DNA from: a virus | Virus record (IMG/VR): IMGVR_UViG_3300033984_000473 | Location: 91,393-155,392 of that record | Reading direction: 5' to 3' (one strand) | Length of the DNA: 64,000 nucleotides | Shown here: in pieces, positions 6,752 to 63,618 of the stretch | How the letters are laid out: the number at the start of each line of letters is the position of its first letter | Position numbering within the stretch: position 1 is the stretch's first letter | Position numbers and translations under genes: made by a program | The notes under the pieces: generated by a model | Told to the model about the DNA's origin: nothing | The model's database searches: none | The model's input: only the letters and a program-made list of their open reading frames with translations

Positions 6752-6803
6752 AGTATTTCGATATTAGATTACAAAGGTATGAATAATATTTCAGACTACC
6801 AAA

Positions 6804-7388
6804 TTAAAATGTAAATTTTAATTTATAATTGTTTGATTCCCAGATTTCACTCGTAATGTCTAGTTTATCTTTAAGAATTTCTAACATTTTCTCGTGATTC
6901 CTAGACCGATACAATGTCATTTTACCAGTACAAGTTTCAATAACCCATGGATAATTTTCCTCATTTTTCCTACACTTCAATTTAAAATCGTTCAAACCAT
7001 GGTCTTGGTTTATAATCGTAACCACCAACTGATAATAAACCAAATGATACATATAACCACCTTCACCACAATGTCTATTTTCACATTTAATAATTCTAAA
7101 CTCCATAGTTTCTCTAGGGAAATAAAAACACTCATAGTAAACACCTTCGGTATCTTTATAATAATCTAAAATATCATCATTTATTAATTTAGCACCATAA
7201 TCACTAATGTTGGCTTTGAACCTTTTTTCCATGGTAAAACCCTTACCATCTGCGAAAAATATTTGATTGCGTCTTTCATCGTATCTTTCGAATGTAGTAA
7301 GGGTGTTATCGTAATACTCTTTAAACTCTTTCAAGTCAAAGTTATCGTAATAGGTAGTTTCTTGTCTAACTAACTTCTTCATTGACAT
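6804..7388 (-). CDS. hypothetical protein (194 aa), paralog family A
   Basis: N-terminal RQETTYYDNF motif shared with the 11968..12333 product (RQESTYYEDF). Confidence 0.55.
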   Translation of the reverse strand: MSMKKLVRQETTYYDNFDLKEFKEYYDNTLTTFERYDERRNQIFFADGKGFTMEKRFKANISDYGAKLINDDILDYYKDTEGVYYECFYFPRETMEFRIIKCENRHCGEGGYMYHLVYYQLVVTIINQDHGLNDFKLKCRKNEENYPWVIETCTGKMTLYRSRNHEKMLEILKDKLDITSEIWESNNYKLKFTF

Positions 7389-7848
7389 CTTCCACTACTT
7401 CAAAATAAAAAGTTTCGTCATTATATTTAAGTGAAAACTTTAATTGGTTGTTAATAACCAATGAACTAGAAATCATAAACCCAACAGCATCTTTGTAGTA
7501 TTCAGAACCTTTAGGTATTGTACACTCATAAATCTTGTGAATTTCGTTACCTTCAACTAAAACCTTCTTTGCACTTTCCAGATTATCAATCGAATGGAAC
7601 CCTTGTCCTAGACAAATCAAATCTGGTTCTCTTTTCCACCCATTAGGATAATTTGATTGTAACCATTCAACATCGAGAATACCTAGACAACACCATTCAT
7701 CTGAATGTTCTATCTTTTCTGTATAAACCTTACCTATTTCATAGGTGAATAACTGATAAACAGCACTCTCATTTTCGGTTAATACTTTGAAAACAGTAAT
7801 GTCTTCATTAGCAATCAATGCTATTTTTTGTGTTGTAATTAAGCACAT
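7366..7848 (-). CDS. hypothetical protein (160 aa)
   Basis: ORF in gene train. Confidence 0.5.
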   Translation of the reverse strand: MCLITTQKIALIANEDITVFKVLTENESAVYQLFTYEIGKVYTEKIEHSDEWCCLGILDVEWLQSNYPNGWKREPDLICLGQGFHSIDNLESAKKVLVEGNEIHKIYECTIPKGSEYYKDAVGFMISSSLVINNQLKFSLKYNDETFYFEVVEDVNEEVS

Positions 7849-29235: not shown

Positions 29236-29342
29236 ATTCGGTTATACTATATGGTGGTCTATCACCTTAGCCTTTCGCTAAAACTGTTAATGTGTGCCTC
29301 ACTGGACTACTCAACCAATGTCGCTTTAATAGTATAACCTAG

Positions 29343-29413
29343 AAACTCATACTGGATTCGAACCAGTGTCTGCGGGCTCCACGCCCCCCGTGGTTCCACT
29401 CCACTAATGAATC
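29343..29413 (-). tRNA. tRNA, 71 nt, possibly Pro (UGG)
   Basis: Acceptor GATTCAT/ATGAGTT, D-arm GTGG-AGTGGAA-CCAC, T-arm ACTGG-TTCGAAT-CCAGT. Anticodon stem GGGGG/CCCGC has one mismatch; loop CGTGGAG. Confidence 0.6.
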
Positions 29414-51904: not shown

Positions 51905-52089
51905 GAGTCATAATCGGTTATATCCTTTTCAATTCCATAGTCTTCAAATCTTACCTTTACGTTAAGACCGATACCAGTATAAGAAATTAGATAAGAAACC
52001 TTACCAAGCTTTCCATGTAAAAAATTTACACTTTCTTCTAGCTTTGCAAGTGTTTCCACTTCTTTTTCGTTTAAGTTAAAGTCAGCCAT
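51898..52089 (-). CDS. small hypothetical protein (63 aa)
   Basis: Short ORF tightly coupled to neighbours. Confidence 0.4.
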   Translation of the reverse strand: MADFNLNEKEVETLAKLEESVNFLHGKLGKVSYLISYTGIGLNVKVRFEDYGIEKDITDYDSW

Positions 52090-53081
52090 TAAAATCTTTC
52101 TTTTTTAAGCCCTTCGTAGCTTGTTTTACTATTGATTGCACTAACAGCTAAACCGATTTGTTTTGCCATGCTAATAACATTTAGTTTATCATTACCAAAG
52201 ATACCATTGTAATCTGTTGGTTTTCTTAATGAATCACTAATAACCAATTCAGTTAGTACTGAATTTTCAATACGAGCCAAAGCTGGTCCAGAACAGATAC
52301 CATGACTGATGATTGCTCTTACACTCTTGGCACCAGCTTCCATAATAACTTCAGCGGCTTTGCAAAGTGTTCCAGCAGTATCAACCATATCATCTAAGAT
52401 GATTACGTTCTTACCACTAACATCACCAATGATAACCATATCATCAATAACGTTGGCTTGTTTACGAGTTTTATCCAACATAACATAATTGATTGAAATG
52501 TCATGGTAGTTAGCCAATTGGTCTTTCATACGTTTAACACGTTTACCAGAACCAGCATCTGGGCCACACAAGATTGTATCTTCATCATATATCGAAGCGA
52601 TGTACGAATCAAAAACATTTTTACCTTCTAAGTGTGTAACTGGGATATTGAAAAACCCTTGAATTTGGTCAGCATGTAAATCAAATGTGATAACACCTGT
52701 TGCTCCACGATGCTCAATCATTTCAACCATAACCTTGGCACCGATAGGTCCACGTGATTGGTCTTTCTTGTCTTGACGAGCGTATGGGAAGTAAGGTAAG
52801 ATTGGAATAATCTCTCTAGCGGCTGCACGTTTGGCGGCATCTATCGCTAGATTTAACTTTATGATTTCATCTGAATTATTAGGGCTAGACAAGATATAAA
52901 CTCGCTTGCCTCTAATTGATGATTCAAAATCCACACATAACTCACCATCAGAAAATTTCTGACTGTTGATTATGTCTAGCTTTACTTTCTCTTTTATCTT
53001 TGAATTGTTATTGATAAAATCAATAACACTATTGGCTAAATCTTCTCTACCATCTAACGCCACTAATACTGAATCATTCAT
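52089..53081 (-). CDS. prs: ribose-phosphate pyrophosphokinase (PRPP synthetase)
   Basis: HADQIQGFF, PYARQDKK and PRPP-binding DDMVDTAGT motifs; start moved to MNDSVLV past the promoter. Confidence 0.9.
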   Translation of the reverse strand: MNDSVLVALDGREDLANSVIDFINNNSKIKEKVKLDIINSQKFSDGELCVDFESSIRGKRVYILSSPNNSDEIIKLNLAIDAAKRAAAREIIPILPYFPYARQDKKDQSRGPIGAKVMVEMIEHRGATGVITFDLHADQIQGFFNIPVTHLEGKNVFDSYIASIYDEDTILCGPDAGSGKRVKRMKDQLANYHDISINYVMLDKTRKQANVIDDMVIIGDVSGKNVIILDDMVDTAGTLCKAAEVIMEAGAKSVRAIISHGICSGPALARIENSVLTELVISDSLRKPTDYNGIFGNDKLNVISMAKQIGLAVSAINSKTSYEGLKKERF

Positions 53082-53098
53082 AGTTATATATTTTTTAA

Positions 53099-53130
53099 CA
53101 AAGGTACATAAAAATTTTTGAATAAACAAA
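53099..53130 (-). promoter_or_regulatory. promoter (-33 TTTG / -7 TACCTTTG) for prs
   Basis: taacaaaggtacataaaaatttttgaataaacaaatg. Confidence 0.6.
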
Positions 53131-53136
53131 TGTTTA

Positions 53137-53310
53137 TTATTCTTTATTACTTTTTCTATTAAATAAATAAATAACACCAGCAATCAAAGATGCCGTTGCC
53201 AAGTATTTCAATACACTAACGAATAAAAATATTCCAAAGAAAATACCTTGTAAGACGAACAATACTAGTAATACTGCTATAAAAATTCCGATTAATTTTA
53301 CTGTTTTCAT
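53137..53310 (-). CDS. small membrane protein
   Basis: Hydrophobic; start trimmed to MKTVK. Confidence 0.4.
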   Translation of the reverse strand: MKTVKLIGIFIAVLLVLFVLQGIFFGIFLFVSVLKYLATASLIAGVIYLFNRKSNKE

Positions 53311-54309: not shown

Positions 54310-55062
54310 TTATTTGTCGTTTTTATCGTCTCCGATTGCATGCGTTAATAATCTATTTACTACTTCTGTTACACCTTCAACTGCTGATTTCTTTACGTAC
54401 TCAACCTTAAGCCCATAATTATCTAAATAATGCATCGGCTCTGGGTCGATGTAAATTATTTGACAATCGGTTCTCACATTTTGTAACATATCCAAAGTAT
54501 AACCAATTTGTAAGCTTGTACCAATTATTAATAATATATTGGCATTACGAACTGCTTGATATGCTCTGTCAACATGTTTTGGATATTCACCAAACCATAC
54601 AATATCTGGTCTAAGTTGTGAATCAAATTTATCATCTTTATCACCAATGTTGATGTCGTTGTATCCTATGTCTATTGATTCGCAAACATCAGAAAAAGGA
54701 CCTCGACTACCACCATAACAACCTTTGGCTTTGGTTAATTCACCATGCAAGTGTAATATATTGGTTGAGCCACCTCTTTCATGTAAATCATCAACGTTTT
54801 GAGTTGTGATAGTTACATCATATTCTTCTTCCAAGGAAGCCAACGCTGTGTGAGCAGCATTCGGGTGAACATCTGGTAATTGTCGTCTTCTCTCGTTGTA
54901 GAAGTCCAATACCATAGCTCTATCTTTTTTCCAACCTTCGATAGTTGCTACGTCCTCAACCTTATGGTTATTCCATAGGCCATCTTTGACATCTCTAAAG
55001 GTGAGGATTCCAGATTCTTTGCTGATACCAGCACCACTAAAAATTACAATTTTCTTTTTCAT
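54310..55062 (-). CDS. Sir2-family NAD-dependent deacylase / ADP-ribosyltransferase
   Basis: GAGISKESGILTFRD, QNVDDLHERGGS, IIGTSLQ sirtuin motifs. Confidence 0.85.
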   Translation of the reverse strand: MKKKIVIFSGAGISKESGILTFRDVKDGLWNNHKVEDVATIEGWKKDRAMVLDFYNERRRQLPDVHPNAAHTALASLEEEYDVTITTQNVDDLHERGGSTNILHLHGELTKAKGCYGGSRGPFSDVCESIDIGYNDINIGDKDDKFDSQLRPDIVWFGEYPKHVDRAYQAVRNANILLIIGTSLQIGYTLDMLQNVRTDCQIIYIDPEPMHYLDNYGLKVEYVKKSAVEGVTEVVNRLLTHAIGDDKNDK

Positions 55063-56627: not shown

Positions 56628-57077
56628 TTACGGTACATAGTTTACAATCGTAACATACTCACCACGAAGTTCTTCGTCAATGATTGCTTCAATTGTAGCC
56701 CAATCACCACCAGCTAACCCAGCACCAATCTTTGGTAAACCAAATGTTTTACCAGAAAATTTAGCTTTCATCAACTTCAACGCAGAACGCAAAGCATCAT
56801 AGTCTAAATCCATCTGACCACTTCGTCTTCCAGTATAGTCATATTGACCATACAAGTTAACAACTATTGGTTTTGTAGCTTCACTATATGAAATAGTACC
56901 TAGCTTGTTAATATCCCCTTGAACTGTCTTGCAGTCAGCAGCGTAAGCATCTGGGAATTTATGTTTGATTTGCGGGGCAATACCAGCACCCATAGTGTTG
57001 AAACAATTACAACAGTGCCCAATTACTTCGTAGTTTTCGGCATCCTTAACAAGGTCACCATCGATATATCTAATCAT
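56628..57077 (-). CDS. macro-domain protein (ADP-ribose binding or hydrolysing)
   Basis: VIGHCCNCFNTMGAGIA and FGLPKIGAGLAGGDW macro signatures; start trimmed to MIRYIDGD. Confidence 0.8.
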   Translation of the reverse strand: MIRYIDGDLVKDAENYEVIGHCCNCFNTMGAGIAPQIKHKFPDAYAADCKTVQGDINKLGTISYSEATKPIVVNLYGQYDYTGRRSGQMDLDYDALRSALKLMKAKFSGKTFGLPKIGAGLAGGDWATIEAIIDEELRGEYVTIVNYVP

Positions 57078-57591
57078 TTTGTTTAAATTTTTTGTTTGCC
57101 ATTTCAATACTAGCAGCGATTGTGTCAACTAAAGTATTATAAATGATTGGGTTATATAATTCGTTTTCTTTGGCAACAGCTTCCCACATGATGTCTAAAT
57201 AACCCATACGATAAGCATCGTCTGGTCTACCATAAATCATTTTTTGTGGTTCTCTACCTTGCCAGTAACCAAACTCCATATTGGTTGTTAGAGCAATAAG
57301 TTCTCTAGTTCTTGGTATCCAAAATAAGACACAATCAGCTTTTTTAAGACCATTATATTCCCACATAGGAATCCAAGCCTTGTCTTTATCTGATTCAGTC
57401 TTAGAAGTAAATTCTGGGATGATTAAATCACCTTCAAATCCTTGACGTTTAAATTCTTCAATAGCCTCAAAACGCCATGATGTTAAATGAGGTTGATTTC
57501 CTCTTACAGTTGGTCCAGCTAAGAAAACTGAAGGTCTGTTTATCGACCTTACAGTATCTTCTGATTCTTCATATCTATGTACTTGTACCAT
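57070..57591 (-). CDS. nucleoside 2-deoxyribosyltransferase-like (NDT-fold) protein
   Basis: SVFLAGPTVRG and ADCVLFWIP...ALTTNMEFGYWQG. Confidence 0.5.
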   Translation of the reverse strand: MVQVHRYEESEDTVRSINRPSVFLAGPTVRGNQPHLTSWRFEAIEEFKRQGFEGDLIIPEFTSKTESDKDKAWIPMWEYNGLKKADCVLFWIPRTRELIALTTNMEFGYWQGREPQKMIYGRPDDAYRMGYLDIMWEAVAKENELYNPIIYNTLVDTIAASIEMANKKFKQND

Positions 57592-58088
57592 TATGAATTT
57601 TTGTTAAATGTTTCTCTTACTCGCATAATGGCTTCACCTAACCAGTTTTTGCCTTGCCATTTGCTTTTGTCTTCGATGTTTCTGTGGTCAACACCCATTC
57701 CAATACCCCAAATCTTGTCGTATGGACTAGCCTCAACAATTTCTTTGTCATCAGTTTTCATTAACTCAACCTTTAGACTAGGATTTTGTGTGAATTTAGC
57801 CAAGTTACCTTGATAAACAAATTCTCTACACACTTCATTCCATCTGTCTGTGTTAAAGTTTTTAACTGTACGACCCAAAGATTTTTGGTCAACTGGTCTA
57901 GAGGCAGCCATGATAGCATCGTGACTCTCTTGGTCGTTGAATGTCAATGCTTTCATCGCCATCATGTATTGCTCACAGCAATTATATTCGATTCCAGCAA
58001 TGCTGAATTTAGACGAATACCACTGACTGTAGATTCCATTCCAAAAGAATACGAATTCATCAGTTGTTTTTTCGTTTGTATTTTTCAT
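57591..58088 (-). CDS. NADAR (DUF1768 / YbiA-like) family protein
   Basis: FVFFWNG, YNCCEQYMMAMKALTFND, VMYQGNLAKFTQNPSLKVELMKT and DKIWGIG match the NADAR signature. Confidence 0.85.
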   Translation of the reverse strand: MKNTNEKTTDEFVFFWNGIYSQWYSSKFSIAGIEYNCCEQYMMAMKALTFNDQESHDAIMAASRPVDQKSLGRTVKNFNTDRWNEVCREFVYQGNLAKFTQNPSLKVELMKTDDKEIVEASPYDKIWGIGMGVDHRNIEDKSKWQGKNWLGEAIMRVRETFNKNS

Positions 58089-58089
58089 T

Positions 58090-58479
58090 TTAAATAGTTT
58101 TTTTAGTCGTGCTTCTATGAAATTCAATCAATTCCACACTTTTTATTTCTAACCCTTTGGTATATGTGAAAGTTTCAAGTCTTTCTTTTATCATATCCAA
58201 GTGTTCCTGTGTTGGTTCTTCATCAAAGAAAATCACAACACCTTTATTGGTACCACCATCTATATCGTTACCCAACGCTACTGGTCTATACGTACCATTA
58301 TCATCAGCTTCATTTCCGATAACATCATCGAAAAATTCTGCAACAGTTTCATCGATTAATTCGTCACCAACTTCACAATCACCAACGTGACCAGTTAGGT
58401 GTGCACACATTTCTCTTTCAAAGTTTCCAGCGTACTGATTAGTTTCAATCAATACAGCAAATTTAGCTCTCATTCCCAT
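58090..58479 (-). CDS. hypothetical protein (129 aa)
   Basis: ORF in gene train. Confidence 0.5.
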   Translation of the reverse strand: MGMRAKFAVLIETNQYAGNFEREMCAHLTGHVGDCEVGDELIDETVAEFFDDVIGNEADDNGTYRPVALGNDIDGGTNKGVVIFFDEEPTQEHLDMIKERLETFTYTKGLEIKSVELIEFHRSTTKKTI

Positions 58480-59084
58480 TATTCTAAGTTTTTAAGTGCG
58501 TTAGCTTTATGGTTTGCACTAATTTTGTCATACAAACCAGATACAAGACTATAAGTGTATTCAAATAATCTTCGGAATGGGTTATTTAACAACGTACCCA
58601 ACAATGATAAAGGCCAGTATGAAATCCAAGCTACAATCGAAGCTTTATTATCCAATCCTTTCGGCATGATTTTATTTGCGATATCTGATGTAGTTTTAAC
58701 ATCACTACTATAAACACTAATACCAACAAGTCTTAATTTTTCACACAAATTAACGATATAGTTTGGTGCTTTTAATTCATCAACTTTATTAGCCACAGTT
58801 TTAAATTTTCGATATACTGATTTTACAAACTCATTCCATTTTAAGAATGACCATATAACCCCACATATCAAATACCCTACGATAAATAAAACGGTTACGA
58901 GTATGTTGGCGGTCATAAAGGTCCATGCAATACCACCGTAGTTCCAAATTAATAATGCGATAGCTAAACTAAAAGCTGTTGTCGCAGTTCCTTCTGATTG
59001 TAATTCTAGTGATATAATAATCACCAACGCTGCGATAATACTAAACCATAGTATGAATGTCGCACTTGCTAATAATGTTAACAT
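58479..59084 (-). CDS. integral membrane protein (201 aa)
   Basis: Several TM helices. Confidence 0.5.
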   Translation of the reverse strand: MLTLLASATFILWFSIIAALVIIISLELQSEGTATTAFSLAIALLIWNYGGIAWTFMTANILVTVLFIVGYLICGVIWSFLKWNEFVKSVYRKFKTVANKVDELKAPNYIVNLCEKLRLVGISVYSSDVKTTSDIANKIMPKGLDNKASIVAWISYWPLSLLGTLLNNPFRRLFEYTYSLVSGLYDKISANHKANALKNLE

Positions 59085-59096
59085 GTTTTTCTTTTT

Positions 59097-60662
59097 TTAA
59101 ATTGTTATTTTTGCTCTTTCTCTAATTTCTTCGAATGTGTAATCAACAAGGATTTCACCATTTCTAAATACTTCAACCAATTCATCTGTTACTGAATCAA
59201 AGTCAGCATCCATTGATGTAACGGTTCTGTATGTACCATCATCATTCTTAACTAATTTAAGCTTTCCTTGCTTAGATTTTTTGAATGATTTTGTAATGTT
59301 ACCATCAGCATCCATTTCAGTTGGTGACTTAACAATATTTCTTTCTTCACCATTAACAATTGCATAACATGCTTTGGTTGCGAAGTTTTGCGTATCTCTG
59401 TTGATATCTGCTTGTAGCAATTTACCACCCATACCCAACGCTAAGTTCTCTGGAGAGATTTTCAATTCATCTAACATTGCGTAGATTTCTCTGATTGAAT
59501 CCAAATTTACACCATCACCTTGAATAACACGTACTTGTGGTGGCAATACCTTGTAACCTTTTTCATTGGTTGTGTAACCAAATTTATCGAATAAGATGTT
59601 GAAGATTTCTTTTAAAGTCATCAATACATCACCAGAATCTGGGCGTATAACCAATTGATTCCCTGGAGTTGCTGGTCTTGATAAAACCAATTCTTTCAAC
59701 TCAGTTCCCCAATACTCAGAACATGCTCTGAAAATGTTAAATGAATCTGATACACACGCAACCAATCCAGTAGGATAAGTTTTCAATACACGCATCATAA
59801 GTGCTAACTCACCTTCTTCACCGTTTAGGGTCATGATTGAGTGCTCTGTTGCTGGGATTGATAAACCATACACAGTTTCTGTGTTATAAAGGTCACGGAT
59901 TAATTTTGATGCTACTACGGTGTCTGAACCTCTAAAGTTCACCAAGTGAGCAGAACCACCAATCTTAGCTGATTGTACACTTGATACACCACGGAAACCG
60001 AAGTCATTCAATACGAAATCAACAAGGAAGTCGATAAGGCCAGCATCATACGCTGTTCCTTTTACGAATGCGGCAGTAACGATTTTTCTTACTTCTCTAG
60101 AAAGTGAAGCAACGGTAATCGGATACCAAACTTGAAGCAATATTGACTCTAAGAAGTTGGTCAACCATGCACATTCTGGGTCAAGACTTTCAATTACGAA
60201 TAACACATTTTTAGTGTTAACGATAGTTCCTTCTGGAACCGCCTTGATGCTGATAGGTAATTTCCCATCATATTTGTCAACGATGTAATCAAACTTGCTT
60301 CTATCGAATACACCATCACGACCAAAGATACCTAATTCATTACCTAACATATCGTTAGCTTCATCAACTTCTTCTTTTGTAATAGCAATACCCTCTAAGT
60401 ATTGTTTAAGTACAATCTGTAAACCATAGAATACGGTTTCTGAAAATTTACCACCTCTTGATTCCATGTATGAAACCATCTTGGTCATTTCAGAACCATA
60501 GAATTTGTGGTGTGAATATTTGTAACCATCGGAACATAAGACCAAGTTATCTGGCTTAGTGATGATTTTAGTAAGGTATTTTTGCATACCTTCAATACTA
60601 GACCAGTCTTTATTTTGAATGGCTGTCGCTAAATTCGTAGCTAATTGTGTTTGTAAACTCAT
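59097..60662 (-). CDS. nadV: nicotinamide phosphoribosyltransferase (NAMPT / NadV)
   Basis: CSDGYKYSHHKFY, FGFRG, GSDT, SIPATEHS, VIRPDSGD, QGDGV conserved NAMPT motifs; start moved to MSLQT past the promoter. Confidence 0.9.
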   Translation of the reverse strand: MSLQTQLATNLATAIQNKDWSSIEGMQKYLTKIITKPDNLVLCSDGYKYSHHKFYGSEMTKMVSYMESRGGKFSETVFYGLQIVLKQYLEGIAITKEEVDEANDMLGNELGIFGRDGVFDRSKFDYIVDKYDGKLPISIKAVPEGTIVNTKNVLFVIESLDPECAWLTNFLESILLQVWYPITVASLSREVRKIVTAAFVKGTAYDAGLIDFLVDFVLNDFGFRGVSSVQSAKIGGSAHLVNFRGSDTVVASKLIRDLYNTETVYGLSIPATEHSIMTLNGEEGELALMMRVLKTYPTGLVACVSDSFNIFRACSEYWGTELKELVLSRPATPGNQLVIRPDSGDVLMTLKEIFNILFDKFGYTTNEKGYKVLPPQVRVIQGDGVNLDSIREIYAMLDELKISPENLALGMGGKLLQADINRDTQNFATKACYAIVNGEERNIVKSPTEMDADGNITKSFKKSKQGKLKLVKNDDGTYRTVTSMDADFDSVTDELVEVFRNGEILVDYTFEEIRERAKITI

Positions 60663-60691
60663 ATTGTTAAATTTTTTGTTCTTATTTGATA

Positions 60692-60723
60692 CAAAGGTAC
60701 TAAAAGTTTTTTGGATAACCAAA
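60692..60723 (-). promoter_or_regulatory. promoter (-33 TTTG / -7 TACCTTTG) for nadV
   Basis: gatacaaaggtactaaaagttttttggataaccaaat. Confidence 0.6.
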
Positions 60724-60738
60724 TATTATATCGATTAT

Positions 60739-61080
60739 TTATTCATTCGTATTCACGATTAAAACTTTTTTACCTAATTTGTTTGCTTTATTGATACTAT
60801 CTTTAGTACCCTTAGATTCCATATCCCAAAAAGCTACTACTAATTCAGAAGCTTCCACTATCTGGGTATTCCTTAAAAAACCAGCAATTTTGCCATAGGC
60901 TTTCCAATCTGGTTTAAATATAAGAGTTTCAATACCATTTTCTTTGGCATAATCCTCACCCAACGTATCAGCACCAGCGGCACCACCACTTATTATCAAT
61001 GTTATACCTAATGGTTGTAGTGTTTTCTTTACTAATTCATAATCAGTAAAGCCTCGACTACCTATAATAGCTACTTTCAT
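60739..61080 (-). CDS. SLOG-superfamily protein (DUF2493 / YspA-like)
   Basis: IIGSRGF...ISGGAAGADTLGEDYAKENGI...FLRNTQIVEASELVVAFWD. Confidence 0.65.
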   Translation of the reverse strand: MKVAIIGSRGFTDYELVKKTLQPLGITLIISGGAAGADTLGEDYAKENGIETLIFKPDWKAYGKIAGFLRNTQIVEASELVVAFWDMESKGTKDSINKANKLGKKVLIVNTNE

Positions 61081-62576
61081 TAGTAATTACTTAATGTACC
61101 CTTGTTATTTCTAACAATAACACTAGTAGGTTTTAATTCTTTTGGGCTAGTTAACCCCATAGCACCCAAAACTTCACGAATTTCATGAATTACAGCTGTA
61201 TGATAGTTAAAAACACGTACTTTTTTCTCTTCTGGGTTCAACGCACTGATTAAATGCTTGTTTTGAGTAGCAATTCCTACTGGACATGTGTTCATATTAC
61301 ACTCTCTAGCTTGAATACATCCTAAACTAAGCATAAATGCACGTGCTGCGTTAACAATATCAGCACCCAACGCCAATAATTTGATAATATCGAATGAGTT
61401 GCTAGCTTTTCCAGATGCAATAAGAGTAATTTTGTCTCTCAAGTCGTATTGTTTAAGTGTTTTATTAACAAAAATCAACGCATCTACTAGTGGCATACCA
61501 ACATTATTGGTAAAAACTATCGGTGCAGCACCTGTTCCACCCTCTCCACCATCAATTGTGATGAAATCTGGGTATATTTTTAGTTCTTTCATAGTATACA
61601 CCAACGATATGAACTCACTTTCATCACCTAGACATAGTTTTATACCTATAGGTAACCCATCAGATAGGTCTCTAAGCTCACTTATGAACTCTAATAACTC
61701 TTTATGGTTAGTAAATGCACTATGGTATGGGGGACTCATTACATCTACATGTGGTTCTACCCCACGTATGTCAGCAATTTCTTGAGTATTCTTAGATGCT
61801 GGGAGAATACCACCATGACCAGGCTTGGCCCCTTGTGATAATTTTATCTCTACCATCTTGATACTCTTATTATTTAATATAGTATCAAAAAATCTAGGTG
61901 TTGAAAATACACGTCTACCATCAACTGTTCTGCCAGCACCAAAGTAACCAGTTCCAATTTGGAAACATAAATCCCCACCATTCTCTACATGATAAGGACT
62001 AACACCACCTTCACCTGTATTGTGATAGAAGTTACCTAGCTTGGCACCACCATTCAATGCTCGAACAGCAGCATCTGACAAAGCTCCGTAACTCATTGCA
62101 CTAATGTTAAAGATACTAGCCGAATAAGGATGGCGACAGTTTTCACCACCAATCGTTACACGAGGCTCAGCAATCAATGAAATGTCTTTAGGGAACATAG
62201 AATGACCTAAGAACTCGTAACCTTCCTTATACACGTCTAATTGCGTTCCGAAGGGTGTTGTGTTGATTTCACCTTTGGCTTTTTGATAGACATCAGAACG
62301 TTTCTCACGATTGTATGGTGTTCCGTTGGTATCGTGCTCAATAAAGTATTGTTGTATCTTTGAACGTTCCGACTCAAAAACCCATCTAAGTCTTGCAACT
62401 AATGGGTAGTTTTTAAGTAGAGCATGTTTTGTTTGGAATATGTCGTGAATCACAACAATTAACGCAACTAAAAACAAGGTTGCTAATATCCATAAACCTA
62501 AGCTTTGAACTATGTAAGAAATTACACCCAAGGCTATTGTCCAATAAACAAAAAAGATTACGATTTTATCTCTCAT
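61080..62576 (-). CDS. glutamate-synthase-domain (GltS FMN-binding, PF01645-like) oxidoreductase with N-terminal TM anchor
   Basis: GLGCIQARECNMNTCPVGIATQN and GGEGGTGAAP signatures. Confidence 0.75.
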   Translation of the reverse strand: MRDKIVIFFVYWTIALGVISYIVQSLGLWILATLFLVALIVVIHDIFQTKHALLKNYPLVARLRWVFESERSKIQQYFIEHDTNGTPYNREKRSDVYQKAKGEINTTPFGTQLDVYKEGYEFLGHSMFPKDISLIAEPRVTIGGENCRHPYSASIFNISAMSYGALSDAAVRALNGGAKLGNFYHNTGEGGVSPYHVENGGDLCFQIGTGYFGAGRTVDGRRVFSTPRFFDTILNNKSIKMVEIKLSQGAKPGHGGILPASKNTQEIADIRGVEPHVDVMSPPYHSAFTNHKELLEFISELRDLSDGLPIGIKLCLGDESEFISLVYTMKELKIYPDFITIDGGEGGTGAAPIVFTNNVGMPLVDALIFVNKTLKQYDLRDKITLIASGKASNSFDIIKLLALGADIVNAARAFMLSLGCIQARECNMNTCPVGIATQNKHLISALNPEEKKVRVFNYHTAVIHEIREVLGAMGLTSPKELKPTSVIVRNNKGTLSNY

Positions 62577-63580
62577 TAGTATTTGATTAATTTATCAGTC
62601 ACCACTTTTTTCAAGAATGTTTTCATCAACTCAACGTGTTCTGGAACAATCTTATCTTCAACCTTAAAGCCATAGTCAACCTTTGGAATGTGCCCATCAC
62701 CTTGACTTGGTTCTGTTATTACATTTAAGAAATCTTTTAAGTCGAACCAACGAACTTCAGCGATATCGTCAGAAGCTTCTGGACGACCCATTTGGTCCCA
62801 TTCGTATGTCATAAACAATGTTGTCATGATACCAGATTCCTCTTTGGCGTATCTCCAATCTTCAACAGCTTGACTGCAAATATAAGTCATACCCAATGCT
62901 GATAACTTGGTTTCTTCCATCAACTCTCTACGAGCAGCCATTTCCCAGTTTACATCGTCACGGTCAACAAAACCACCAACAAATCTAAAAAGAGTTTCTG
63001 CTGGTTTTCTAGCCAAAAGGATTTGTCCTTCTCTAGCTACAACAACATCAACGGTTGCATAGGTTACTGGTCTTTGTTTTGAGATACCATAGATTATACC
63101 AGCTCTAAAATCTTCACTTTCTTCAACAGTTTGTGCTGCTAAACCTCTGATTTCAGTAGCGTTGTGAGATTCGATTGGTGTAAATTCTTCTACATGGTGT
63201 CTACCATGATAGTGAGGGATAAAAGAATCACGACTACCGTAAATGATAGCTTGTTTCTCTGGAAATATAGTTCTGATAGTGTTATCAAGGTTTGTTGACC
63301 ATTTTTCGTCACTTCTATTATCTTCTAAAGGTAGAACTATAACATTAGGATACGTATTTTGTATCATTTTCTTTCTGGTAGGAAAATCCAAAGGATTTCT
63401 TTTTGTATTCTGGATTCTAGCGATACCTAGAAATACAATAACATTTGAGTGTTTGTTGGTTACATGGTTAAGTAACCCTTTATGACCATCATGTAGATAA
63501 GGCGTTTCAAATCTACCAATAATAATCCCAATTGCTTCCGCTTCGTTTAATTTTTTCATGTTTCTAATTTTATAATACAA
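62576..63580 (-). CDS. nadM: bifunctional NMN adenylyltransferase / Nudix hydrolase (NadM-Nudix, NatV-like)
   Basis: Nucleotidyltransferase GIIIGRFETPYLHDGH (HxGH); C-terminal Nudix box GGFVDRDDVNWEMAARRELMEETKL. Confidence 0.85.
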   Translation of the reverse strand: MYYKIRNMKKLNEAEAIGIIIGRFETPYLHDGHKGLLNHVTNKHSNVIVFLGIARIQNTKRNPLDFPTRKKMIQNTYPNVIVLPLEDNRSDEKWSTNLDNTIRTIFPEKQAIIYGSRDSFIPHYHGRHHVEEFTPIESHNATEIRGLAAQTVEESEDFRAGIIYGISKQRPVTYATVDVVVAREGQILLARKPAETLFRFVGGFVDRDDVNWEMAARRELMEETKLSALGMTYICSQAVEDWRYAKEESGIMTTLFMTYEWDQMGRPEASDDIAEVRWFDLKDFLNVITEPSQGDGHIPKVDYGFKVEDKIVPEHVELMKTFLKKVVTDKLIKY

Positions 63581-63612
63581 AGGTACAAAAAAAATCCCGA
63601 TAAAACAAATTA
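63578..63612 (-). promoter_or_regulatory. promoter for nadM; its -33 lies inside the upstream terminator hairpin
   Basis: aatacaaaggtacaaaaaaaatcccgataaaacaaatt. Confidence 0.55.
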
Positions 63613-63618
63613 TCGGGA
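63588..63618 (-). terminator. rho-independent terminator
   Basis: CCCGATAA-AACAAA-TTATCGGG perfect 8-bp hairpin followed on the minus strand by T8. Confidence 0.65.

Follow-up and report, generated by a model that had tools for sequence, protein, structure and literature searches.

NadM, a nicotinamide mononucleotide adenylyltransferase (NMNAT), and NAMPT, a nicotinamide phosphoribosyltransferase, constitute the published two-gene NARP2 pathway (bioRxiv 10.1101/2024.02.11.579819). The papers on NARP1, NARP2 and NARP3 describe phosphoribosyl transfer, adenylylation, kinase and transport steps and no redox step, and the words FMN (flavin mononucleotide), oxidoreductase and glutamate are absent from them. 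The FMN domain of glutamate synthase (GltS) is known in a different setting, as N-methylglutamate synthase shows that it can be recruited to other chemistry (PMC6237917). For viruses, one or more virome catalogues name 'gltB' as a putative auxiliary metabolic gene (bioRxiv 10.64898/2025.12.10.692286), and in our literature search we found such listings and no dedicated analysis of the phage clade described here. Here we describe a GltS-like gene in 64,000 nucleotides of viral DNA (IMG/VR virus record IMGVR_UViG_3300033984_000473, positions 91,393 to 155,392; this whole stretch is referred to as the window), where it lies between genes for NadM and NAMPT. The gene is real. Sequence comparison and a structure model identify its product as a GltS-type FMN-domain oxidoreductase that stands alone and carries a membrane anchor. 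The gene, and the phage clade to which it belongs, are new to a bacterial family that is known but uncharacterised. We conclude that the gene is an independent and optional auxiliary metabolic gene that contributes no step to the pathway of nicotinamide adenine dinucleotide (NAD).

Domain structure and cofactor residues

An earlier interpretation of the window, made from its letters alone (the sequence-only reading), had placed an open reading frame (ORF) of 498 codons at positions 61080–62576. We find it exactly there, on the minus strand and with an ATG start. The gene and its parts are as follows.

61080–62576, minus strand: GltS-like gene, 498 aa, predicted membrane-anchored FMN/[3Fe-4S] oxidoreductase (ORF, PF01645, PDB matches, AlphaFold2 model and Foldseek, substitution rates)
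62436–62573, minus strand: codons for aa 2–47, predicted two-helix transmembrane hairpin (Kyte-Doolittle, AlphaFold2, homolog N-termini)
62121–62435, minus strand: codons for aa 48–152, family-specific linker (consensus frequency, model confidence, outside the Pfam match)
61152–62120, minus strand: codons for aa 153–475, predicted FMN-binding TIM barrel (PF01645), including QGAKPG (Q248, K251), R271 and GGEGGTGAAP (Pfam, PDB alignment, homolog alignments, Foldseek)
61284–61319, minus strand: codons for C420-x5-C426-x4-C431, aligned with the [3Fe-4S] cysteine triad of GltS (alignment to 7mfm and 1llw)

The Pfam family PF01645 (Glu_synthase), with which the sequence-only reading had expected two motifs to align, matches with an E-value of 1e-88 and 298.5 bits (gathering cut-off, 20.4 bits), aligning aa 153–475 with positions 66–368 of the 369 in the model. 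Both motifs are present in the translation: DGGEGGTGAAP at aa 342–352 (GGEGGTGAAP at aa 343–352) and ECNMNTCPVGIATQN at aa 425–439, with CNMNTCPVGIATQN corresponding to aa 426–439. A phmmer search of all PDB sequences returned only GltS large subunits (7mfm, E = 5.5e-39; 1llw, 1ea0, 2vdc and 6s6s). The AlphaFold2 model, built from 39 homologs, has a mean predicted local distance difference test score (pLDDT) of 80 and a predicted template modelling score of 0.75, and contains a TIM barrel. In a Foldseek search with the model, GltS large subunits again take the first seven places (E = 1e-17 to 1e-19; E = 1.5e-19 for 1ofd), with the flavocytochrome b2/glycolate oxidase family after them, in agreement with the FMN-binding (β/α)8 barrel fold of PF01645. 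The NCBIfam model of full-length GltB, PRK11750, reaches 151.9 bits against a cut-off of 1047 and is matched over positions 861–1165 only. No family in PHROGs or PADLOC matches the protein, and we detected no dinucleotide-binding motif or additional domain in it. The sequence-only reading had called stand-alone GltS-domain proteins poorly characterised, and our literature search bears this out: it turned up no paper on what the family, YerD-type proteins included, does, and nothing joining glutamate synthase to phage NAD genes.

The cofactor residues are preserved. C420, C426 and C431 fall on the GC..R.C...CPVGVATQ motif of 7mfm and 1llw. In an alignment to the ferredoxin-dependent GltS (Fd-GltS) of Synechocystis (1llw numbering), Q969, K972 and R992 correspond to Q248, K251 and R271, and the GEGG glutamate is E189. 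These four residues and the cysteine triad are invariant in 39 phage-type sequences and in a set of 28 mixed sequences, and all seven are among the positions at which identity reaches 95% or more in the phage group and in the bacterial group alike. There are 125 such positions, which include all cofactor and catalytic motifs. Only 12 positions tell the phage clade from the bacterial one, mostly by conservative changes; two in the Fe-S loop, R424 and V433, are non-conservative, and there the phage residues are the canonical GltS residues. Neither the conservation pattern in the two groups nor the ratio of non-synonymous to synonymous substitution rates (dN/dS, see below) shows any sign of decay or of a remodelled active site.

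The sequence-only reading had also proposed an N-terminal transmembrane anchor. The hydrophobic anchor is present, but it consists of two adjacent helices forming a hairpin instead of one. Kyte-Doolittle peaks lie at aa 5–23 and 25–46, and the model has helices at aa 2–23 and 26–47 (pLDDT >90), separated by a loop of two residues. A hydrophobic N-terminus is found in all 131 phage-type sequences of our sample and in 80/80 bacterial homologs. The N-terminus reads MRDK and a stretch rich in lysine and arginine follows helix 2; from these features, the two-residue loop and the positive-inside rule, we predict that both ends are cytoplasmic (N-in/C-in), which would place the catalytic domain in the cytoplasm. 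The cytoplasm is also where an Fe-S flavoprotein that carries its cofactors and has no export signal would need to be.

The linker that follows the hairpin is as conserved as the catalytic domain, with a mean consensus frequency of 0.76 vs. 0.73 for the barrel. Its segment aa 68–112 (62241–62375) is modelled with a pLDDT <50 despite high conservation across phage and bacterial members, and may fold only with cofactors, at the membrane surface or with a partner.

Genomic context and distribution

About 116 of the 125 called ORFs in the window are on the minus strand, and the gene order nadM/Nudix, GltS-like, SLOG (YAcAr), NAMPT is the one that the sequence-only reading had described. The neighbouring features are these.

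63595–63618, minus strand: strong intrinsic terminator just upstream of nadM, taken as the 5' limit of the nadM-GltS-SLOG transcription unit (9-bp stem, T8 tail)
62576–63580, minus strand: nadM-type bifunctional NMN adenylyltransferase/Nudix gene (Pfam NUDIX and CTP_transf_like, NCBIfam PRK05379)
60739–61080, minus strand: SLOG (YAcAr) gene (PF10686, E = 1.2e-14)
59097–60722, minus strand: NAMPT gene (NCBIfam PRK09198, E = 8.5e-154; phrog_448)

The terminator, read from 63618 to 63595, has the stem TCCCGATAA...TTATCGGGA followed by TTTTTTTT. The nadM stop codon and the GltS-like ATG, and likewise the GltS-like stop codon and the SLOG ATG, share the sequence TAATG with a one-base overlap. Two weak terminator-like hairpins inside the ORF (62000–61970 and 62151–62131) were rejected on account of their poor T tails and their position, and no other terminator-like signal was found between nadM and NAMPT. 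The co-transcription, missing terminator and tight overlaps of the sequence-only reading therefore hold for nadM, the GltS-like gene and SLOG, but the tight coupling stops before NAMPT, which is separated from SLOG by 17 nucleotides, or by 76 with the start used in database gene calls. The GltS-like gene is embedded in the nadM-NAMPT module and almost certainly co-transcribed; its co-transcription and translational coupling with nadM and SLOG are well supported in this phage. As to gene starts, the TTG starts of the longest ORFs, at 63580 for nadM and 60722 for NAMPT, are probably too long. Database gene calls use internal ATGs, giving nadM from 63559 (327 aa) and a NAMPT of 521 aa (60662–60722 region); with these starts, about 36 nucleotides separate the terminator from nadM, and 76 separate SLOG from NAMPT.

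Membership of the gene in the NAD module was assessed in related phages, whose loci are denoted here by L numbers. The same slot is occupied in at least nine of them (L002–L004, L090, L091, L093, L095, L111 and L140), so that the gene is not absent from all relatives, the case in which the sequence-only reading would have seen a recent random acquisition. Its presence is limited, however, in an IMG/VR scan that was seeded with NAMPT, not with GltS: of 22 loci with a visible NadM...NAMPT interval, only four carry the GltS-like gene. In the other 18 the interval reads NadM-[~205-aa P-loop protein]-NAMPT, NadM-SLOG-NAMPT or NadM-NAMPT. The backbone of the window's phage family, AAA-NadM...NAMPT-NADAR-Macro...SIR2-Prs, has most of its genes at 60–85% identity. 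NAMPT similarity to the window is 72–98% in loci with the gene and 65–86% in loci without it. Presence and absence are thus interleaved with NAMPT similarity, and the interval is therefore a variable slot in which genes have come or gone repeatedly. As the gene does not occur consistently with NAMPT and NMNAT, we do not regard it as a NARP2 component.

Some further features of this slot were seen in the relatives. The P-loop protein (Walker A GSGKST/GSGTT, no Pfam match on record) fills it in most of them and is absent from the window (L003 9363–9998, L004 9378–9998, L114 9393–10007, L120 9402–10025, L123 9332–9946, L136 7512–8117); the slot can hold any combination of the P-loop gene, the GltS-like gene and SLOG. 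In four loci NAMPT is broken up into two or three ORFs, with a further ORF in between (L129 8596–11100, L130 8596–12700, L131 8542–10900, L132 2607–5000), which suggests an intron, an intein or a homing-endonuclease insertion. L130 also has a GIY-YIG-like ORF (6793–7566) between AAA and NadM.

Beyond this family, six other giant-phage lineages contain orthologs that are 62–70% identical, among neighbours essentially unlike anything in the window, and no NAMPT, NMNAT or other NAD gene lies within 10 kb of the ortholog in any of the six. Seven different phage contexts of the gene were seen; those outside the NadM...NAMPT interval are listed below.

642-kb phage and relatives: TopoIV-Rhomboid-NIF-SprB-(SpoVR)-GltS
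540-kb phage: hypothetical genes only
334–727-kb phages: Nudix-YqeY-GltS-Smr
Another phage lineage: CoaE upstream of the GltS-like gene
Another phage lineage: guanylate kinase alongside the GltS-like gene
Another phage lineage: endonuclease, adenylate kinase and ribosomal protein S21 nearby

In the tree described below, the NAD-linked loci are unsupported as a subclade (10/100 bootstraps), and the copy of the 540-kb phage nests among them. Among the best 80 bacterial loci no neighbour is conserved across families; synteny occurs only within families (Weeksellaceae), and none of the neighbours links the gene to NAD genes. The sequence-only reading had suggested that the enzyme could act on a substrate derived from pyridine nucleotides, for which the four occurrences in 22 intervals and the six lineages without nearby NAD genes provide no support.

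Three of these contexts contain neighbours of separate interest. YqeY (GatB-like, PF09424) lies directly upstream of the GltS-like gene in the 334–727-kb lineage (L008/L009 9289–9729) and about 4 kb upstream of it in the window's family (L002 5620–6009, L140 5167–5571). In the 540-kb phage (L006), a tRNA synthetase of the GluRS/GlnRS type is encoded 2 kb upstream. The proximity of these genes may be a coincidence or a loose glutamate/glutamine theme. Immediately upstream of the gene in the 642-kb phage is a SpoVR-family gene (L005 8461–9960, LR756502.1), which is unusual in a phage. SpoVR is usually part of the bacterial PrkA-YeaH-SpoVR stress/nitrogen-starvation operon.

The gene itself is widespread, although the sequence-only reading had been aware of none in a phage. 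A search of 5.8 billion proteins returned at least 8000 homologs, the best 120 of which are all at least 62% identical to the query, many of them on contigs of 200–727 kb. The exact protein is present on metagenomic contigs of 190–233 kb, and a 98% identical one on the IMG/VR viral contig L090. A megablast search with 5 kb around the gene gave no nucleotide match in 50,697 deposited phage records (INPHARED). With tblastn, 22 phage records were hit, of which only LR756502.1 (642 kb, 'uncultured phage') is convincing as a phage. The Acinetobacter, Staphylococcus, Listeria and Salmonella 'phage' records were rejected because they look like host contigs (gltB and class II amidotransferase annotations). 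These host-like INPHARED records (CAKLQH020000020.1, OR845003.1, AGRM01000002.1 and others, with names such as Acinetobacter phage MD-2021a and Staphylococcus 'SA ... Kay', and a Salmonella record of 691 kb) contain ordinary gltB genes or stand-alone members of the GltS family, and a count of phage homologs that took their labels at face value would come out too high.

Bacterial homologs were collected by scanning one genome per species in 185,579 prokaryotic species, and the best 80 loci were used. Among the matches listed, the alignments to 80 proteins run end to end at 50–58% identity (Polaribacter, Fluviicola, Glaciecola, Chryseobacterium, Mucilaginibacter, Bdellovibrionota and others), and phage-type sequences are at most 61% identical to any of the bacterial homologs sampled. 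The sequence-only reading had pointed to a phylogeny against bacterial stand-alone GltS-domain proteins as informative. When 222 sequences were placed in a neighbour-joining tree, all 131 phage-type ones grouped as a single clade in 100/100 bootstraps, separate from the best 80 bacterial sequences; the tree is distance-based, the phage-type set was picked by similarity to the query, and genomic context was inspected for about 20 of its members. The sister of the phage-type clade consists of Polaribacter and one 270-kb 'viral' contig. Compared with its L090 counterpart, the gene has 57.5 synonymous and 12.5 non-synonymous differences, a dN/dS of 0.054 that rests on this one pair (the L003 pair was left out because its alignment is not gapless). 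The gene is under purifying selection; this ratio, together with the monophyly of the phage clade, indicates that it is functional.

The wider neighbourhood in the window comprises NadM/Nudix, SLOG, NAMPT, a 201-aa membrane protein, NADAR, a nucleoside-deoxyribosyltransferase-like protein, Macro, SIR2 and a PRPP-synthetase-like protein, and other PHROG matches in the window are to phage nuclease, DNA-transfer and ATPase families. This NAD/ADP-ribose toolkit (52089–53183, 54310–55062 and 56628–58127, all minus strand; 46359 region) is unusually complete beyond NARP2 and also includes a second Nudix. The PRPP-synthetase-like protein, which may be a true Prs or the Adps of NARP1, matches phrog_619, Macro is DarG-like in PADLOC, and NADAR matches PADLOC PDC-M42C (E = 4e-45). 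The 201-aa protein is a multi-pass membrane protein encoded directly downstream of NAMPT (58479–59084, minus strand); it is found at 48–56% identity in the same position in most relatives, with or without the GltS-like gene. By analogy with PnuC of NARP3 it could be a transporter of NAD precursors, but it matches no family in Pfam, PHROGs or PADLOC, and a PnuC-like role finds no support there. The sole tRNA gene in the window is a tRNA-Pro (TGG) at 29342–29413 on the minus strand.

A proposed reaction and its alternatives

The reading that we favour, and hold to be probable though well short of certain, is a membrane-tethered Fe-S flavoenzyme that acts on a glutamate/2-oxoglutarate-like pair and exchanges electrons with generic host carriers. 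The two-helix hairpin would tether the cytoplasmic TIM barrel to the inner membrane. The barrel would bind FMN and a [3Fe-4S] cluster, electrons would pass between the two, and FMN would reduce a 2-iminoacid or oxidise an amino acid at the GltS-like site. The most likely reaction would be 2-oxoglutarate + NH3 + 2e- <-> L-glutamate, in a direction that the sequence does not decide; free ammonia would be used instead of glutamine, because there is no amidotransferase domain. Given that the gene travels alone in bacteria and phages, its redox partner would have to be one that hosts generally possess, such as ferredoxin, flavodoxin or the quinone pool; for the quinone pool the only pointer is the anchor. 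A plausible benefit to the phage would be the upkeep of glutamate/2-oxoglutarate pools or of redox balance during the long infections of giant phages. Genes for 2-oxoglutarate (2OG)-dependent dioxygenases (PhyH, 2OG-FeII_Oxy) are found nearby in the window's phage family. In this proposal the substrate, the electron partner, the topology and the physiological role are what we infer.

YerD, presumably a member of exactly this subfamily, is listed among the SigB proteins for osmotic resistance (PMC7522486), and a Staphylococcus saprophyticus protein, placed in it by annotation name, is induced at 20% NaCl (PMC8870806). These expression reports are hints of a link to glutamate and stress in bacteria.

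Several points weigh against a glutamate/2-oxoglutarate enzyme. The mechanism is built on sequence comparison and modelling. Isoleucine (I257) stands in place of Q978 of Fd-GltS, and E1013 has not been kept, so that the true substrate may be other than 2-oxoglutarate. The loss of E1013 is to be expected in a protein without an amidotransferase domain; in GltS this residue presumably couples the synthase site to the glutaminase site. Q969, K972, Q978 and R992 are residues of the synthase site of Fd-GltS; three of the four, all but Q978, are kept in the phage protein. The conserved linker (aa 48–152) might bind another partner. The one-base overlaps with nadM and SLOG represent real co-expression in this phage. 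Finally, the second gene upstream of the GltS-like gene in the L008/L094 lineage is a Nudix gene, and in L110, an IMG/VR contig of 110 kb, a 44% identical GltS-like gene has SLOG, Nudix and AAA genes no more than 4 kb away. These last two cases could reflect a link to nucleotide metabolism, but we judge the argument weak because Nudix genes are common in large phages. The order in L110 (2335–7965) is GltS-like, an unknown gene, SLOG YAcAr, another unknown gene, NUDIX and AAA, which is the content of the window's AAA-NadM/Nudix-GltS-SLOG stretch in a different order; OmpA-like and ABC-transporter genes follow, and the contig may be partly cellular.

The alternative that fares best is that the same scaffold acts on another substrate, a 2-oxo or imino acid, an amine or a hydroxy-acid-like compound, and serves some other need of the virocell unrelated to glutamate or NAD. 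The change of Q978 and the loss of E1013 relative to GltS are what such an enzyme might show, the 105-residue conserved linker could form a lid or a substrate-binding element, and N-methylglutamate synthase provides the precedent for recruitment cited at the outset. Nevertheless, the residues equivalent to K972, R992 and Q969 and the GEGG glutamate are invariant, and the published expression hints concern glutamate and osmotic stress. We therefore consider a different substrate unlikely, while taking it seriously.

A place for the enzyme in the NAD/ADP-ribose module is, in our estimate, a good deal less credible still. It would there carry out a redox step on a substrate derived from pyridine nucleotides or ADP-ribose, for example a damaged or reduced nicotinamide nucleotide, and so aid NAD+ reconstitution. 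Its attraction comes from the TAATG coupling to nadM and SLOG downstream of the terminator, from the shared slot in at least nine related phages, whose GltS proteins are 67–100% identical to that of the window, and from the Nudix, SLOG and AAA genes near the L110 gene and the Nudix gene in L008/L094. It is at odds with the 18 of 22 NAMPT-seeded loci that do without the gene and are interleaved in NAMPT similarity, with the six phage lineages that have no NAD gene within 10 kb, with the bacterial homologs, which are not linked to NAD genes, and with a NARP1/2/3 chemistry that needs no redox step. Moreover, the residues that align with the 2-oxoglutarate site are kept, and the protein has no dinucleotide-binding motif or extra domain.

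It is very improbable that the gene is a mere passenger, acquired from a host not long ago and without a part to play in infection: the slot is variable and often empty in relatives and no PHROG family matches, but the dN/dS of 0.054 and the invariance of all cofactor and catalytic residues speak against it, and the deep 131-sequence clade with at most 61% identity to the bacterial matches listed argues for long residence in phages.

Significance and comparison with known systems

A sizeable and strongly conserved clade of GltS-like Fe-S flavoenzymes, phage-specific in this sample, thus spans several lineages of jumbo and mega phages. The locus also corrects a guilt-by-association argument, in that embedding in an operon of one phage family does not amount to membership in the NAD pathway. 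More speculatively, and in our view with rather low probability, the phage clade may represent an enzyme that giant phages devote to the virocell, or the enzyme may, in the nadM-linked family, have acquired a nucleotide-related substrate. If the former were true, a membrane-tethered glutamate/2-oxoglutarate oxidoreductase would link the largest amino-acid pool of the host to membrane or ferredoxin redox, and would supply energy, 2-oxoglutarate for phage 2OG-dioxygenases, or glutamate and osmotic homeostasis. In either case, an Fe-S flavoenzyme would for the first time have been shown to serve huge phages as a conserved auxiliary metabolic function, and the orphan bacterial YerD family would gain a function. 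That family is widespread and tied to general and osmotic stress, and an assignment would cover its phage and bacterial members alike. A gene that travels by itself, with every cofactor residue retained, also makes a tractable single-protein target.

Of the systems described, NARP2 of phage KVP40 (NAMPT and NMNAT) is matched by the genes flanking the GltS-like gene, nadM (NMNAT/Nudix) and NAMPT. NARP2 is a two-gene pathway without a redox enzyme, whereas in the window's family the GltS-like gene is an optional insert between the two.

The FMN-domain subunit of N-methylglutamate synthase (MgsABC) is, like the phage protein, a stand-alone GltS FMN-domain protein and bears the same NCBI family name (PMC6237917; bioRxiv 10.64898/2026.06.26.734754). 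The Mgs protein has about 442 residues and works with adjacently encoded amidotransferase-like and GXGXG subunits. We ruled out an MgsABC-type enzyme, as no partner-subunit genes were found in the neighbourhood in the window or in related loci.

The large subunit of GltS (GltB/GlsF; 1OFD, 1EA0, 7MFM) shares with the phage protein the TIM barrel, the FMN motifs, the C-x5-C-x4-C triad and the residues Q969, K972 and R992. It differs at Q978, which is isoleucine in the phage protein, and at E1013, which is not conserved there. Three of its four domains, the Ntn amidotransferase, central and C-terminal GXGXG domains, are lacking in the phage protein, which in turn has a membrane anchor and a 105-residue linker that the large subunit does not possess. 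No GltD-like or pyridine-nucleotide-disulphide-oxidoreductase Pfam family was found within 10 kb in the phage loci examined. With the three domains and a nearby GltD-like partner absent, a canonical glutamate synthase is ruled out.

The closest relatives are the membrane-anchored stand-alone GltS-FMN proteins of bacteria (YerD-type), which have the same N-terminal hairpin, conserved linker, FMN barrel and cysteine triad in about 500 residues, and which are 50–58% identical over their full length in Polaribacter, Fluviicola, Glaciecola, Chryseobacterium and Bdellovibrionota. From these the phage protein is set apart by its separate clade and by the 12 discriminating positions, R424 and V433 among them.

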